A stretch of DNA of 64,000 nt from an uncultured Actinomycetota bacterium (GTDB lineage: Bacteria > Actinomycetota > Actinomycetes > Mycobacteriales > Pseudonocardiaceae). The stretch lies in assembly GCA_963727745.1 (NCBI GenBank), contig CAVSHL010000011.1, forward strand, positions 644,344-708,343, read 5' to 3'. Numbering within the stretch: position 1 is the first letter of the stretch; each line of letters opens with the position of its first letter. This document shows, piece by piece, positions 1 to 44,532 of this stretch. Under the pieces are notes generated by a model. That model was given only the letters and a program-made list of their open reading frames with translations, did no database searches and was not told the DNA's origin. The position numbers were made by a program, and so were the translations under genes.

Positions 1-1100
1 CCGGTGCGCGGCCTGGAGACTGTCGATCCGGCGGCGCGTCCATTCGCCGTCGTCGGCGACCAACATGACGGTCGGCCCGTCGAAGTTGGTGCCCGGCTCG
101 AAATAGGCCTCGACACCGGCGCGCGTCGACGTCCACTCGTCGAGGTAGCCGAAGTCCACTTCGACGGGTTTCGACTGGGCGCGGGGAGCGCGTCGGCGGC
201 GAATGCGGAGGAACGATCGGACGACCAGCCAGGACGAGGAGGATGCCGAGCGCCAGCAACAGCCAGAGTTCGGGCCGCTCCCAGTAACCGGCGGCTTCGG
301 GACCGGTCGTCGCGATGGCGTCGTTGATCCAGCTGCGGAAGGGCGAAACTTCGGTCGCGCGGCCCTTCTCGGAACCGCTGGAGAAGTGGGTGCTTCCACC
401 GAGGGTGCCGAGCAACTCCAAGCGCCCGTCGACGTTGATGACGATGGGCCCGCCCGAATCACCCTTGGCGGTCCCTTCCCGCGGGTCCTCTTCGGGCCAG
501 TACAGCTCGTGGGCCTGTTCGTCTTCGACGGAATCGCGATACTGAGACGGTGCGAACAACGCGATCTGCAGCTGCTTGAGGACCGGGGACGCCGAACAGT
601 CCTCTTCCTCGCAGGTCCTGCCCCAGCCGATCACCGTGGCCGACCGACCGGACTGCGGAGCCATCGGCGCCGCAATGGGAATCGGTGTCTTGTCGGTTGA
701 TCTGGCGAGTTCGATCAGGCCGATGTCACGTAGACCTGGCTCTGTGACCAGACGCGCGGCATGACCGACCTCGCCGTCATACCTCTCGGTCGCCCCCAGG
801 TACAGCGTGAAGTCCTGCGCGCTGAGCAATGGCGCGCGCAAGTCGCCTTCCTCTGCGCTGGGGACGTCAGCGACAAGACAATGCGCCGCTGTGACCACCC
901 ATCGCTTGTCGATCAGAACGCCGGTGCATTCGCCGGTCTTGCTGGTGACCAGCACGGTCCACGGATATTCCTGGGTGACGGTCCGGCCGCCCACGATCCC
1001 CGAAGCCGTTCCGCCTGACACCAGTGACAGCGCCACCACACAAGCGATGACGATGACCGTACGGACAGCCGTGAACGCTGACAGATTCCCCGCCCCCCAA
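1..1100 (-). pseudogene. Trypsin-like (S1) serine protease with signal peptide, C-terminal TM helix and small cytoplasmic domain; two apparent +1 frameshifts; runs off the left window edge
   Basis: Manual minus-strand translation gives hydrophobic leader, IVGG (997-986), VTAAHC (His 883-881), DIGLIEL (Asp 727-725) and GDSGGP (Ser 457-455) in one frame. RBS TAAGGAG + TTG at 1100 is one base out of frame (G6 run 1093-1098). A second shift at 232-233 joins the TM helix to a domain reading VEAYFEP..VMLVADDGEWTRRR. Confidence 0.8.
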
Positions 1101-2226: not shown

Positions 2227-3444
2227 TCAGACGACGTGCACGTGGGGCACGTAGAGGATGAAGCGCCCGCCGGCCTCCCGGAAGGCCGCTTCCTTCGCCA
2301 TGATCTCCTCGGCGTGGTTCCAGGCGAACAGCAGCGCGTAGTCCGGCGCCTCGGTGGCGAACGCCTCCGCCGGCCGGACCGGGATGTGCGTGCCCGGGGT
2401 GACCCGGTGCTGCTTGGCCGGTGTGGTGTCGCAGACGAACGAGACCAGCTCGCTGTTCAGGCCGCACATGTTGGCCACGGTGGCGCTCTTGGCCGTCGCG
2501 CCGTAGGCGACGACCTTCTTGCCCTGCGCGCGGAGGTCGGTGAGCAGGGTGACCAGGTCGTCGCGGATGCGGGTGACGCGATCGCCGAACGCCGCGAGCG
2601 TCTCCAGGGTGGCCAGCCCGGCCGCGTCCTCCTCGGCGATCAGGGCGGCGACCGCGGGCGCCGGGGTGCGGGCGCCGGCGCGGGCCAGCGTGTAGCGCAC
2701 CTCGCCGCCGTGCACGGGCAGCCGCGCCACGTCGACGAGCTCGAAGCCGAACCGCGCGGCCATGGCCTGCACCGAGCGGGCGGCGAAGAGGTAGAAGTGC
2801 TCGTCGTAGATCTGGTCGAACGACGTGCGGGCGTTGATGTCGCCCAGGTAGGGGTCCTCGAAGACGAACACGCCGTTCGGCTGCAGCAGCACGTCCAGCC
2901 CGGCGAAGATCGACTCCGCGTACGGGATGTGGCACATGGTGTTGGCCGCGTAGACCACGTCGGCCGGGCCGTCCTCGGCGGCGATCTCCGTGGCCGTGGA
3001 CTCCTCGAAGAACTGCGTGCGCACCCGGACGCCCTTGCCCCTGGCGACCTCGGCGACCCCGCCGGAGGGCTCGACGCCCAGGTGCCGCACGCCGGCGTCG
3101 GCCACGGTGCGCAGCATGATGCCGTCGTTGCACCCGATCTCGACGATGAACGGGTCCGGCCCGGTCAGCTCGGTGTCGAGGAAGTGGTGCGCGGTCGCCT
3201 CGAAGTGCTTGCGCATGACCGACGAGCCGGACGAGAAGTAGGGGTAGTCCTCGTGGAACATCTTGTTCCGCGGGACCTCCTCCATGAGTTGGACCATGGT
3301 GCAGTTTCGGCACAGGCCGACCGCCAGCCGGAAGAAGAACTCCCCCGTGTACTCGCCTGGCTCGGGGAATGCATCCGACAACGGCTGCCGACCGAAATCG
3401 TAGAATTCGGCGAGGGGCTGCTCGCACACGCGACAGTCAGTCAT
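2227..3444 (-). CDS. evaC: TDP-sugar C3-methyltransferase (EvaC/TcaB9-like)
   Basis: N-terminal CRVC and CRNC Zn motifs, EIGCNDG SAM motif, DQIYDEH, YGATAKS, LLFAWNH. Start re-called at ATG 3444 (MTDCRVC). Confidence 0.92.
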   Translation of the reverse strand: MTDCRVCEQPLAEFYDFGRQPLSDAFPEPGEYTGEFFFRLAVGLCRNCTMVQLMEEVPRNKMFHEDYPYFSSGSSVMRKHFEATAHHFLDTELTGPDPFIVEIGCNDGIMLRTVADAGVRHLGVEPSGGVAEVARGKGVRVRTQFFEESTATEIAAEDGPADVVYAANTMCHIPYAESIFAGLDVLLQPNGVFVFEDPYLGDINARTSFDQIYDEHFYLFAARSVQAMAARFGFELVDVARLPVHGGEVRYTLARAGARTPAPAVAALIAEEDAAGLATLETLAAFGDRVTRIRDDLVTLLTDLRAQGKKVVAYGATAKSATVANMCGLNSELVSFVCDTTPAKQHRVTPGTHIPVRPAEAFATEAPDYALLFAWNHAEEIMAKEAAFREAGGRFILYVPHVHVV

Positions 3445-3477
3445 AGGAAAAATGTAGGTTCCTCGGTAGCGGGGGCC

Positions 3478-3508
3478 AACCCCTGAAAATGGCGCCGGCA
3501 CCCCTGTC
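3478..3508 (-). promoter_or_regulatory. Pair of CAGGGGT motifs upstream of evaC
   Basis: On the minus strand, GACAGGGGTG (3508-3499) and TTCAGGGGTT (3487-3478), 21 bp apart in the 70-bp gap. Confidence 0.4.
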
Positions 3509-41194: not shown

Positions 41195-41689
41195 GTGGAA
41201 CCGGACGCCGTCGACGAGATCGCCGTGCAGTGGTCGCGCGAACGGCCGGACATGCCGGTGGACTCCATCGGACTGATCGCGCGGATCCTGCGCATCGCCA
41301 AGATCGTCACCGACGAGCGCCGCCGCACGCTGTCCGCGCTGGGCATCGACTCCGCCACGTTCGACCTGCTCGCGACGCTGCGCCGCTCCGGGAGCCCCTA
41401 CCGGATGAGCCCCACCGGTCTCGCCGAGGCGTGCCTGGTCAGCGGCGGTGCCATCACCCAGCGGGTCGCGCGCGCGGAGGAGATCGGGCTCGTCCGCACG
41501 ACGCGGACCACCCCGGGCCGCCGCACGCTCACCGTGGAGCTGACCCCGCGCGGGCACGAGATCGTGGAGCGCGACGTCGAGGCGCTGATCGGTCGGGAAC
41601 GGGAGCTCGTCGCGCACCTCCCGGCTGCTGACCGGGAGCAACTCGCCGGCTTGCTGCGGCGCCTGCTGGCGGGTCTGCCCGGCGTTTAG
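41195..41689 (+). CDS. MarR family regulator
   Basis: FDLLATLRRSG.PY..SPT.LA...LVSGGAITQRV winged helix. Confidence 0.9.
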   Translation: MEPDAVDEIAVQWSRERPDMPVDSIGLIARILRIAKIVTDERRRTLSALGIDSATFDLLATLRRSGSPYRMSPTGLAEACLVSGGAITQRVARAEEIGLVRTTRTTPGRRTLTVELTPRGHEIVERDVEALIGRERELVAHLPAADREQLAGLLRRLLAGLPGV

Positions 41690-41799
41690 TGGAGTACCGC
41701 GTCGGGACGGCGAGCTTCACCCCGTAGCTCTCGGTCTTCGCTTCTTGGTGTCCCGTCTCGGTTGGTCGAGCGGGGTTGTCGGCCTTGGTGCTCCGTCTC

Positions 41800-41921
41800 G
41801 TTGCGGAGCTGCCGTGGCTTTCACTGCATATTATGGTCGGCCTGGGAGCCGTACCCGACTTGCCACTTTCTTTGACTGCCTTCCCTTCCGTTTCTTGCGT
41901 GGTCAACCGGCCGTGGTTCCG
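41800..41921. repeat. Left arm of a long imperfect inverted repeat flanking the DUF222-HNH gene
   Basis: 41819-41921 aligns ungapped to the reverse complement of 43041-43143 at 83/103 identities (hand count); weaker similarity extends to ~41800/43163. Confidence 0.85.
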
Positions 41922-41924
41922 TCT

Positions 41925-41940
41925 TCGAACCCTTGTTCGA
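41925..41940. promoter_or_regulatory. Actinobacterial LexA (SOS) box
   Basis: TCGAAC-CCTT-GTTCGA is an exact match to TCGAAC-N4-GTTCGA. TAGAAT -10 at 41956-41961 lies 6 nt before the ATG, consistent with a leaderless mRNA. Confidence 0.85.
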
Positions 41941-41967
41941 TGGCGTTTTCTTCGGTAGAATCAGGGC

Positions 41968-43179
41968 ATGTCCAGGTCTCTCCTCGCCGTGCAGCTCGCG
42001 GAGCTTGTTGCGCAGCTCGAGGAGGAGAAGAATGCCGTCGCGGCCCGGCAGGCCGATGCGATTCTTGCGCTCGGGCGGGCCATTGCTGCCGAGCAGATCG
42101 ACTCAGGCGTGGACGATCCGGCGCAGGTGCAGCGGGTCGTTGCTAACCGGGTCGGCGTTGCCTGTCGGGTCTCCGCTCATCAGGGTGGCAAGCGGGTCCG
42201 GATCGCGCGGGATCTACACGACGGCCACACCCTGATCCGAGGGATGTTCGCCGCCGGACTGCTCAACGAGCAGAAGATCGCCGTGATCACCGATGCCGGT
42301 AGCCATCTCGATCCGGACGAGCGCGCTCAGGTTGATGAGCGGCTCGCCCAGCAGGGCATCGAAACCTTCGGCGTCCAGCGGCTGCACGACCTGGCCCGCA
42401 AGATCGCCGCCGAAGTGGCGCCGGAGAAGTTCGAGGCCCGCACCCGCCGAGCCCGATCCGGGCGGCGGGTGACGGTGCGGCGCTCGAGCGAACCCGGCAT
42501 GGCCGACCTGACCGCCCACCTACCGGTTGAGCAGGCCGTGGCCTGCTACGCGGCGCTGCGCAAAGCGGTCAACGAGGTGTGGGTGAAGCCCGAACCGGTG
42601 CTGCGGGGGCAGGGTCAGATCATGGCCGACACCCTCGTCGAACGCCTGACCGGCCAGGCCACCGCCGAGGACGTCGACATCGCGGTCCACATCATGGTCC
42701 CGGTCGAAGCCCTGCTCGACCCGAACAGCCCGCTCCCGGCGGAGATCCCCGGCTATGGCCCGGTCCCGGTCGACCTGCTGGCCACCGGTGAGGGTCGCAA
42801 GACGTGGCGGCGACTGATCATCCGCGACGGCATCGTCATCGGCGGCGACTCTGTCCAACGCAACTTCACCGGCGTCCTGGCCAACCTGATCAACATGCGG
42901 GACGGCGGACGGTGCACCGCCCCGTACTGCGACGCTCTCATCGGTCACTACGACCACATCATCCGGCGCCGCCACGGCGGCCGCACCTCGTTCGACAACG
43001 GCCGCGGGCTCTGTGCCTTTCACAATCATTTGCGAGAAATCGGCACCACGGCCGGTCGACCACGCAGGCAGCGGAAGCGAAGGCCGTCAACCGCAGTGGC
43101 AGGTCGGGTACGGCCGCCAGGTCGACCACATGATTCGGTGAAAAACCCGGGCAGCGCTGCAACTGAAGCGCGCACCTAG
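41968..43179 (+). CDS. DUF222 (13E12-repeat family) protein with C-terminal HNH endonuclease
   Basis: GQIMADTLVERL, AEIPGYGPVP, RDGGRCTAPYCD..IGHYDHI...GGRTSFDNGRGLCAFHN. Confidence 0.88.
   Translation: MSRSLLAVQLAELVAQLEEEKNAVAARQADAILALGRAIAAEQIDSGVDDPAQVQRVVANRVGVACRVSAHQGGKRVRIARDLHDGHTLIRGMFAAGLLNEQKIAVITDAGSHLDPDERAQVDERLAQQGIETFGVQRLHDLARKIAAEVAPEKFEARTRRARSGRRVTVRRSSEPGMADLTAHLPVEQAVACYAALRKAVNEVWVKPEPVLRGQGQIMADTLVERLTGQATAEDVDIAVHIMVPVEALLDPNSPLPAEIPGYGPVPVDLLATGEGRKTWRRLIIRDGIVIGGDSVQRNFTGVLANLINMRDGGRCTAPYCDALIGHYDHIIRRRHGGRTSFDNGRGLCAFHNHLREIGTTAGRPRRQRKRRPSTAVAGRVRPPGRPHDSVKNPGSAATEART
43041..43163. repeat. Right arm of the inverted repeat, inside the 3' end of the HNH gene
   Basis: Reverse complement matches 41800-41921; begins just after the LCAFHN codons. 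Confidence 0.85.
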
Positions 43180-43460
43180 TACTCCAGACGTAAGATCGTG
43201 ATCTTGCGGAGTGGCAGTCCCGGATGTAGGGCGGCCACCGCTTGATGATCGTCCGTTGTGTCGACATCAGATGACCACGCGGTGGCCGTGGGCCAGCGTC
43301 GAACCCGGCTGGTGGCAGCCGAGGCCGATCAGGGCTGCTCGATCGGATGGCTGGGGTTCATCCGGGTCGAGACGCGCCGTCGGGCCCGGAAGTTCGTGCT
43401 CGGGCTGCTGGCCGACCTGCCGCGCAAGAACTGCTGGACGATCGCCGAGCGCGCCGGAAC
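43177..43460 (+). mobile_element. IS701-family left end and decayed transposase N-terminus (remnant)
   Basis: RVETRRRARKFVLGLLADLPRKNCWTIAERAG is the typical IS701 transposase N-terminal motif; upstream codons are frame-scrambled; truncated before the DDE core; CTAG at 43176-43179. Confidence 0.75.
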
Positions 43461-43512
43461 AGCGATCCGTGCGTCCACCGACCCCCATGGCCCACGGACC
43501 GCCATTGCAATA

Positions 43513-44493
43513 TCAACCGAGGCGCTGCAGCGCCTTCTCTACGGCGACCTCGACACGAGCCGTCATGCCAGACACATCGACTGGGCGGCGCCCTGCAACC
43601 TGACGGCGAATCAACTTGGGTCCGTTGTCATCATGGTGAAGCAGGGTGTACAAGTCCCACCACGGGTCGAGAGTTGCGCCCGCGATGGATTCGTACTGCA
43701 ACCGGAGTCGCTCGGCCCAATCAGGCGAATAAAGTGAAGTCAGGTATCGCCGACACTGTCCGACGTCGATGGCGCGAGATCCTCGATGAATTCCATTCCA
43801 GTCGGTGAGTCCCGTGATCTTGCCGCGCGACCAAAGCAGATTGACGGGTAGGTAGTCGCAGTGCAGGAAGACGTCACCGTCCTTAGGTGGCGGTGCTTCC
43901 ATGGCATTGAAGGCCGCCTTCCACACTTCAGGCCGCTGCGCGCCGTCTGGCACCCGAAAACGACCAAGAGGTGCGATCCACGAGTCTGCCCAAGGCCGAA
44001 AAGTCGGCGCTGGAAGGTCGACGGAATGCAGTAGGGCGGCGAACTCTGCGATCCTCGCTATCCATGACCCGTGCTCCGCCGGATTCAGGTGAATGCGGCC
44101 AGGTAGCCGCGTCATCAGCAGAGAGGGCGCACCCTTCGTGGCGACGCCGGCAACATCAGCCGCCAGAATCCTCGGCACCGGAAGCCCGCTTCCTGCCACC
44201 ACGTTCAGGTTGACGATTTCCTTCTCCATGGCGGCCCGAAGCGCCGCCTCGCCCGGCGGGTACTGCCGCAAGACCACAGTGGTTCGTGTGCCGTGTCGCT
44301 CAACCGTCAAGCGATGGACGGCAGAGTTGACGCCACCGGTCAATCGGCGATGCCCGACGATTCGACTGCCCTCGCCCATAGACGCCGCAGCCCAGGCGAG
44401 AGCATCAGTGGAGGGCCGACGTTGGAAGAATCTGCTCTCTCTCCAGTCGCTACCGGTCGGCTGATCTTGGTTGGTCGCATCGTCTCTGTCCAT
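43513..44493 (-). CDS. Aminoglycoside phosphotransferase (APH)-like kinase
   Basis: LTGGVNSAVH, LLMTRLPG, FLHCDYLPVNLLW, LTDW; visibly more A/T-ending codons than neighbours. Confidence 0.85.
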   Translation of the reverse strand: MDRDDATNQDQPTGSDWRESRFFQRRPSTDALAWAAASMGEGSRIVGHRRLTGGVNSAVHRLTVERHGTRTTVVLRQYPPGEAALRAAMEKEIVNLNVVAGSGLPVPRILAADVAGVATKGAPSLLMTRLPGRIHLNPAEHGSWIARIAEFAALLHSVDLPAPTFRPWADSWIAPLGRFRVPDGAQRPEVWKAAFNAMEAPPPKDGDVFLHCDYLPVNLLWSRGKITGLTDWNGIHRGSRAIDVGQCRRYLTSLYSPDWAERLRLQYESIAGATLDPWWDLYTLLHHDDNGPKLIRRQVAGRRPVDVSGMTARVEVAVEKALQRLG

Positions 44494-44532
44494 GACCGAG
44501 AACCCATGACCTTCCGGGAGCGCGTCGTCCGG

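Follow-up and report, generated by a model that had tools for sequence, protein, structure and literature searches.

A multicopy DUF222-HNH nuclease cassette of Pseudonocardia with a predicted SOS promoter and terminal inverted repeats that appear to be selected as DNA

Why should a nuclease gene with a predicted DNA-damage promoter lie between two long inverted repeats? The question is raised by a DUF222-HNH gene in a 64,000-nucleotide stretch of DNA (the window) from a Pseudonocardia genome of 10.23 Mb, 72% G+C and 17 contigs (G000). An earlier note on this DNA had proposed a self-contained unit made of an inverted repeat, a LexA box, a promoter, the nuclease and a second inverted repeat, and had called it a candidate undescribed mobile or foldback element. 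We find that the unit is indeed a discrete repeated element, present in 14 + 6 copies in this genome. “Undescribed” was too strong a word, since the gene belongs to the known LexA-regulated REP13E12/DUF222-HNH family. Judged from the comparisons below, what is new is a probably SOS-controlled, selfish REP13E12-type element with terminal inverted repeats under selection at the DNA level.

The two arms match each other exactly as had been claimed: positions 41819-41921 and the reverse complement of 43041-43143 are identical at 83 of 103 positions without gaps, and a repeat search widens the arms to 41812-41926 and 43036-43150 (115 nt, 78%). Their local alignment score of 113 is far above chance: 200 shuffles reached at most 27, and 278 equally spaced pairs of segments from the rest of the window at most 38. 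As also proposed, the right arm begins directly behind the HNH motif and provides the final ~45 codons of the gene. One correction concerns the length of the arms, because the 115-nt repeat is part of a longer terminal inverted repeat of ~215 bp that begins at ~41707. In an alignment of 14 copies with their flanks, similarity begins abruptly at about this position with ACGGCGAGCTT, and in complete copies it extends ~80 bp past window position 43175, where it closes with AAGCTCGCC, which is the left end in reverse complement. In the window copy, these outer ~80 bp are missing on the right.

The 14 copies, including the one in the window, form family A: units of ~1.55 kb with 87-91% nucleotide identity. 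In its complete members, the alignment of the two ~215-nt ends begins at offset 0-5 of both termini and shows 69-78% identity. Family B comprises 6 copies with ~70% nucleotide identity to family A and proteins that are 55-62% identical; its units are ~1440 bp long and end in terminal repeats of 124 bp (80-83%). There are ~50 DUF222 matches in G000. Looking for the arms around other copies, as the earlier note had suggested, we found them there and reaching the termini of the unit: all 46 arm matches in G000 belong to HNH units or to remnants of such units disrupted by insertion sequences (IS), and none of the 46 is a solo arm or part of a gene-less pair. A search for uninterrupted palindromes, in which a left half adjoins a right half as in a possible target, found none for the arms of families A and B or the ends of a further family, D.

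Family D is a fourth DUF222-HNH family in G000, with ~13 copies that are 84-88% identical, ORFs (open reading frames) of 411 aa and an SOS-like box (locations include C2:73635-75005, C8:298409, C8:362882, C8:412299, C3:66184 and C11:438360). Its terminal inverted repeats of 40-100 nt are unrelated to the A/B arms and come in at least two alternative types, both ending in GGTGGAGCC beside the gene. Since family D has its own, different terminal repeats, inverted ends are a recurrent design of these cassettes in G000.

The LexA box and the TAGAAT hexamer that had been read ahead of the ATG are both in place (Table 1), and box, hexamer and spacing to the ATG are conserved in 14/14 copies. A consensus scan found no canonical -35/-10 pair at the promoter. 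Perfect TCGAAC-N4-GTTCGA boxes occur 21 times in G000, compared with ~0.2 expected from composition, and 15 of the 21 sit in DUF222-HNH elements; recA of the same genome has a near-perfect box upstream, TCGAACACCCGTTCGC. Both this type of motif as an actinobacterial LexA operator and the damage-inducibility of 13E12 genes are established for mycobacteria (PMC13157036), and by analogy LexA would bind the box and the SOS response would induce the element in this organism. Given the share of perfect boxes that they carry, the elements may hold a large part of the cell's strongest LexA sites and may thereby weigh on the host SOS regulon.

The 403-aa ORF matches DUF222 in Pfam (PF02720; residues 20-227, 45.6 bits at a cut-off of 24.4, E 7.5e-12). 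Its HNH match is weak (17.6 bits, below the 21.4-bit cut-off); the residues C316, C321, D329, H330, C349, H352 and N353, which represent the zinc ligands and catalytic residues, are invariant among 40 homologues. Domain scans returned DUF222 and HNH alone, with no transposase domain of the DDE, DEDD, HUH, serine or tyrosine type and, by Pfam scan, no RuvC domain. An NCBIfam scan of the protein gave no match, and a Foldseek search of its AlphaFold model against the PDB gave nothing below E 0.1. This model has a mean pLDDT (predicted local distance difference test score) of 66, with a confident N-terminal helical domain and a stretch from residue 360 to 403 that is predicted to be disordered (pLDDT ~30).

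We compared codon positions to ask which parts of the unit are conserved as protein and which as nucleic acid. In the ORF body of intact copies, identity at codon positions 1/2/3 is 0.94/0.96/0.78, and this strong excess of change at third positions points to purifying selection on the protein. The ~45-codon tail that is encoded by the right arm gives 0.90/0.96/0.92, so that codon periodicity is lost and third positions are 92% conserved, compared with 78% in the body. A tail that lacks periodicity and is yet conserved above the silent-site level indicates that the arms are constrained as nucleic acid rather than as protein. Mean pairwise identity of the left arm is 0.88 in the core and 0.74 in the outer part. 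On these figures, the inner ~110-125 nt of both arms is under constraint at the nucleic-acid level.

The arms also change in concert. When the consensus arms of family A from G000, of family A from the closest species (Pseudonocardia sp. CA-107938, G182) and of family B are compared, 106 columns are firm; 61 of these are invariant, 9 change identically on the left and the right in every lineage, and none shows a fixed difference between left and right. By this measure, left and right arms co-evolve across the three lineages. Within individual copies the two arms are 72-78% identical, and their variants stay distinct.

Two blocks of the arm, AGCCGTACCCGACT and CTGGCNGTGGT, do not vary between families or between metagenome contigs; used as a search pattern, they found 20 soil-metagenome contigs. 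A covariance model (R1) was made from 21 copies of the ~130-nt module. The module accompanies DUF222-HNH genes of types A, B and C, both in G000 and in contigs from soil metagenomes. In G000, an arm sequence of ~130-150 nt (~80-90% identical) lies ahead of 3 copies of family C, whose protein is 27% identical, and a diverged module follows the stop codon in 4 family C copies; one copy has the module in both positions. Mapping with the covariance model placed inverted module pairs around A- and C-like genes. Of 137 Pseudonocardia species genomes searched, only G000 and G182 gave matches to the arm DNA, and a search with the covariance model in a sample of 150 genomes from across the class gave none. 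Arms are present in metagenomic relatives (81-89% identity), and a protein search of genome contigs added one locus, which is arm-less.

One metagenome contig shows the module in another setting. In L153, inverted modules at 724-855 (+) and 3373-3503 (-) lie 2.5 kb apart without a recognisable DUF222-HNH gene between them; the enclosed DNA holds long ORFs without Pfam matches and a CytX-like remnant, and an IS110-type fragment lies outside.

Right arms are also places where other elements insert. In the window, the right arm is cut at 43175 by an IS701-like element, which supplies the stop codon TAG; ~300 bp of this element remain and are followed by an APH gene, and a full copy at C15:185405 contains a 448-aa ORF (DDE_5, E 6.7e-50). 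An IS66-family element of 1,534 bp with a 495-aa DDE_Tnp_IS66 transposase has four copies in G000 at 99.5-100% identity (C11:135363-136896, C11:785216-786750, C13:1118538-1120071 and C8:129364-130896; loci L066, L067 and L069), and 4/4 lie inside right arms of DUF222-HNH elements, at differing positions, three with 8-bp target duplications and the fourth with an adjacent deletion. As the arms make up ~0.05% of the genome and hold all four copies, the regional targeting is strong. A family B copy, G182 and a metagenome contig have more insertions at or after right arms. This right-arm targeting would suit a stretch of DNA that is frequently broken, single-stranded or bound by protein.

How the copies relate to one another was examined with a maximum-likelihood tree of 22 elements. 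All G182 copies group together and all G000 copies group together, each with support of 100/100. Some copies are nevertheless positional orthologues: copy b has one in G182, copy f in G182 and a metagenome contig, and copy d in another contig. Positional orthologues are ~77-78% identical, compared with ~90% for G000 paralogues. Copies that cluster by genome and not by locus, despite positional orthology, argue for concerted evolution.

To look for empty sites, six G000 copies were compared with G182, copies of G182 with G000, and G000 with metagenome contigs. Positional orthology accounts for two copies, and the rest lie in islands or mosaics. At the window locus, the closest species does lack the element: in G182, the sequence of window position 41682 directly abuts that of 44531, with the stop codon of a MarR gene overlapping the stop of a convergent PNPOx-like gene. 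A clean single-element empty site was not obtained, since the extra DNA of G000 is a 2.85-kb composite of element, IS fragment and APH gene with TAG on both sides. Relative to G182, islands specific to G000 (4.7-6.7 kb) contain copies m and d and one copy of family B, and copies a and e are part of a mosaic that is not syntenic with that genome. None of the outcomes that the earlier note had named as telling against its proposal turned up: arms co-occur with other copies, they are conserved above the neutral level and the closest species lacks the element here.

Two further observations concern these sites. In G182, a family-B-like HNH gene (C1:3184306-3185339; L070 7372-8265) lies 2.6 kb downstream of the empty site, and G000 has none there; this difference suggests that the neighbourhood gains and loses such elements. 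At C1:944000-963999 (L064), copies a and e bracket, in like orientation, a 9.4-kb segment that is syntenic as a block in several Pseudonocardia species. On the outer sides of the two copies, the DNA has its counterparts at other places in the genome of the closest species. The whole arrangement resembles a composite transposon or a product of recombination.

Table 1. Positions of the element's parts and of adjoining features in the window.
Feature	Position	Strand	Remarks
Left terminal inverted repeat	41707..41924	+	Core 41812-41924; outer part 41707-41811 poorly conserved; in the 14-copy alignment the shared sequence opens at ACGGCGAGCTT
Left copy of the conserved ~130-nt arm module	41808..41938	+	Covariance model R1, 75.9 bits, E 3.5e-20
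LexA (SOS) box TCGAACCCTTGTTCGA	41925..41940	+	Kept in all 14 copies
-10 hexamer TAGAAT, leaderless layout	41956..41961	+	6 nt ahead of the ATG at 41968; TAGAAT-CAGGGC-ATG conserved in copies
DUF222-HNH nuclease gene, 403 aa	41968..43179	+	HNH zinc-finger and catalytic core at residues ~316-357
Right terminal inverted repeat, truncated	43036..43174	-	Supplies codons ~357-403; R1 match 43024-43154 (-), 80.1 bits
IS701-like (DDE_5) left end	43175..43470	+	80% identity to the start of the full IS at C15:185405
APH-type phosphotransferase gene, same species-specific island	43513..44493	-	Pfam APH, E 5.4e-28
2.85-kb island absent from G182	41690..44530	.	G182 joins window 41682 directly to 44531

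Two other repeats were seen in G000. Three of the 13 family C copies share one 1.93-kb insertion at a single position near the 3' end of the HNH gene (C15:1407280-1409205, C15:461807-463858 and C11:185013-187081); it looks IS-like and has 70% relatives at C16:327848 and C11:188325. A palindromic REP-like repeat of ~66 nt, CGTTGATCAAGGGCAAAAGGTCG ... CGACCTTTTGCCCTTGATCAACG, is unrelated to the element and occurs in a few hundred copies across the genome (e.g. C14:62172-62237, C13:931780-931862 and C10:718934-718999).

What, then, are the arms for? On balance we lean towards a selfish, SOS-controlled REP13E12-type DUF222-HNH cassette in which the long inverted ends function as cis sites; the simplest assumption is that the cassette's own nuclease binds or cuts there. 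The cassette of one Pseudonocardia lineage would have acquired terminal inverted repeats of 125-215 bp that act as cis DNA sites. In the undamaged cell, LexA would occupy its box, which overlaps the leaderless gene's promoter; upon DNA damage the nuclease would be made and would act on the element's own arms, that is, on the ~130-nt module with its repeated GTGGTC motifs. Breaks or nicks would be repaired from other copies, which would homogenise the family within a genome, and repair would occasionally copy the unit, or neighbouring DNA, to new places. The same arm chemistry would attract IS insertions and rearrangements to the right arm. Recognition of the arms by the nuclease would drive both conversion and spread, and repair of the breaks with other copies as templates would account for homogenised families, for spread now and then and for the link with islands.

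Such a cassette resembles free-standing HNH homing endonuclease genes, which are likewise lone promoter-nuclease cassettes without a transposase or target-site duplication and which spread and are homogenised by repair or recombination. It differs from them in that copies occur at many unrelated loci with no single conserved target, and in its long inverted ends, which are foreign to homing genes. The comparisons among G000, G182 and metagenome contigs identified neither a recognition site nor a clean empty allele of the homing type.

Several observations weigh against this explanation. Some of the apparent conservation could come from gene conversion restricted to certain regions. A clean single-element indel was not found: all five sites compared with G182 are a larger species-specific island or a non-syntenic mosaic. 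In a Pseudonocardia-like clade from soil metagenomes, the DUF222-HNH gene has a single module upstream, in opposite orientation (L145:666-860; also L147, L150, L152 and L154), which is followed by TGTCGGTG-N8-GAGAAT in place of the LexA box, resembling a LexA-independent damage promoter of the PafBC/RecA-NDp type. This reversed upstream module is better accommodated by a general cis element than by a strict transposon end. Relatives at 40-54% identity in other Pseudonocardia (G094, G036, G120 and G077) are multicopy units without flanking inverted repeats, and the units of G094 and G036, when aligned, run precisely from the LexA box to the stop codon. A sister clade at 64-66% identity (P. saturnea and P. 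petroleophila) is multicopy and arm-less as well, and retains a canonical C-terminal tail (GW..TPTG..Y). Most family C copies are also multicopy and sharp-ended without arms. Because both the arm-less sister lineages and most of family C have multiplied, the arms are probably not needed for multiplication as such.

A bolder version of the cis-site explanation, possible though unlikely in our view, makes the DUF222-HNH protein itself a mobility enzyme: it would bind the module in both ends and cut after SOS induction, and host repair would copy or move the unit without a target duplication. The unit does resemble insertion sequences with long terminal inverted repeats and foldback-type elements, in that it is discrete, has long imperfect inverted repeats and carries a single ORF that enters the right repeat. 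Unlike insertion sequences, it has none of the transposase domains listed above and no target-site duplication. If this version were true, it would define a transposon-like class driven by an HNH nuclease and would explain the spread of 13E12-type genes and their recombination hotspots.

The arms might instead be a functionless by-product, if upstream DNA was duplicated once, in an ancestor and in inverted orientation, took the place of the gene's 3' end and was then copied along with the gene. The arm-bearing clade has lost the GW..TPTG..Y tail kept by sister proteins, as if one rearrangement had made the right arm, and spread to many copies without arms in relatives agrees with arms that do nothing. 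We nevertheless consider this improbable. Core arm DNA is conserved at 0.88-0.92, compared with 0.78 at silent sites of the adjacent gene, and left and right arms keep changing together in three lineages. Moreover, DUF222-HNH families that are unrelated (27% identity) carry the module too, metagenomes contain it, and a fourth family has terminal inverted repeats of a different kind.

Could the unit be moved in trans? In this scenario, the arms are the ends of a non-autonomous transposon that is mobilised by a DDE transposase encoded elsewhere, and the HNH gene is cargo. Long terminal inverted repeats do reach the ends of the unit, and G000 is rich in IS, some of them beside arms. We found no target-site duplication: direct repeats in a copy's own flanks have a mean length of 4.9 nt, compared with 4.8 nt for mismatched flanks, whereas the IS66-family copies in G000, taken as a positive control, show clean 8-bp duplications. 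The lack of solo or gene-less arm pairs in G000, the failure to find an IS with these ends and the spread of arm-less relatives further argue against movement in trans, which we regard as distinctly improbable.

It is quite improbable, too, that the module encodes or acts as an RNA, be it a partner of the nuclease, an antisense RNA or a 3'-end regulator. The model for such an RNA is the one that overlaps the 3' ends of IscB and TnpB (OMEGA) genes, and there are points of likeness: the right arm overlaps the 3' end of the ORF, reaches the end of the element and is conserved without codon periodicity, and IscB proteins are the only PDB matches of the HNH region (phmmer, weak, E ~0.003). The element differs from IscB/TnpB in having no RuvC domain, no Rfam match, to HEARO or otherwise, no supported fold and a second, inverted module copy upstream of the promoter, outside the predicted transcript. 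An Rfam scan of 41500-43500 at E<=1 gave a chance miRNA match alone. Folding of the left region on both strands gave z-scores of -1.7 and -1.8, and consensus folding of 53 arms and of the 21 module copies gave weak energies (-5.9 kcal/mol for the module consensus) and almost no covariation, with single-sequence z-scores near 0, so that neither an RNA nor a DNA fold, a conserved hairpin included, is supported.

Finally, a switch in which the repeats invert the enclosed segment is very improbable: repeats of this size can recombine and 13E12 genes mark inversion breakpoints in Mycobacterium tuberculosis (PMC13157036), but there is no recombinase gene, the left and right arm variants have remained distinct within copies, and flipping would change nothing in cis because the promoter and the whole gene lie inside the repeats.

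The cassette with functional cis sites has its closest counterpart in REP13E12 (13E12) of M. tuberculosis (e.g. Rv0336, Rv0515 and Rv1702c), which likewise combines DUF222 and HNH, is dispersed in multiple copies of ~1.3-1.5 kb, has a LexA box on a leaderless-type promoter and is a hotspot of gene conversion and rearrangement. The Pseudonocardia unit differs in its 125-215-bp terminal inverted repeats, which are conserved as DNA and of which the right one replaces the canonical C-terminal tail. Inverted repeats were reportedly not part of the original REP13E12 description (1999), and our literature search found no paper that ties 13E12 to inverted repeats. In M. tuberculosis, REP13E12 loci are top gene-conversion hotspots (PMC13061034) and inversion breakpoints (PMC13157036), in line with the concerted evolution seen here, and 13E12 genes are induced by DNA damage (PMC13061034, PMC13157036); a 2026 preprint describes the DUF222-HNH (13E12) repeats as being of undefined function (PMC13061034). 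The Pseudonocardia lineage offers a version of 13E12 with defined ends, a cis element selected on both sides and many intact copies, and could serve as a tractable model, while the IS66-family element that inserts only into the arms provides a read-out within the genome. Together these properties make direct tests feasible. In summary, the element bears on how 13E12 repeats multiply and come to mark conversion and inversion hotspots in actinobacteria, including M. tuberculosis.

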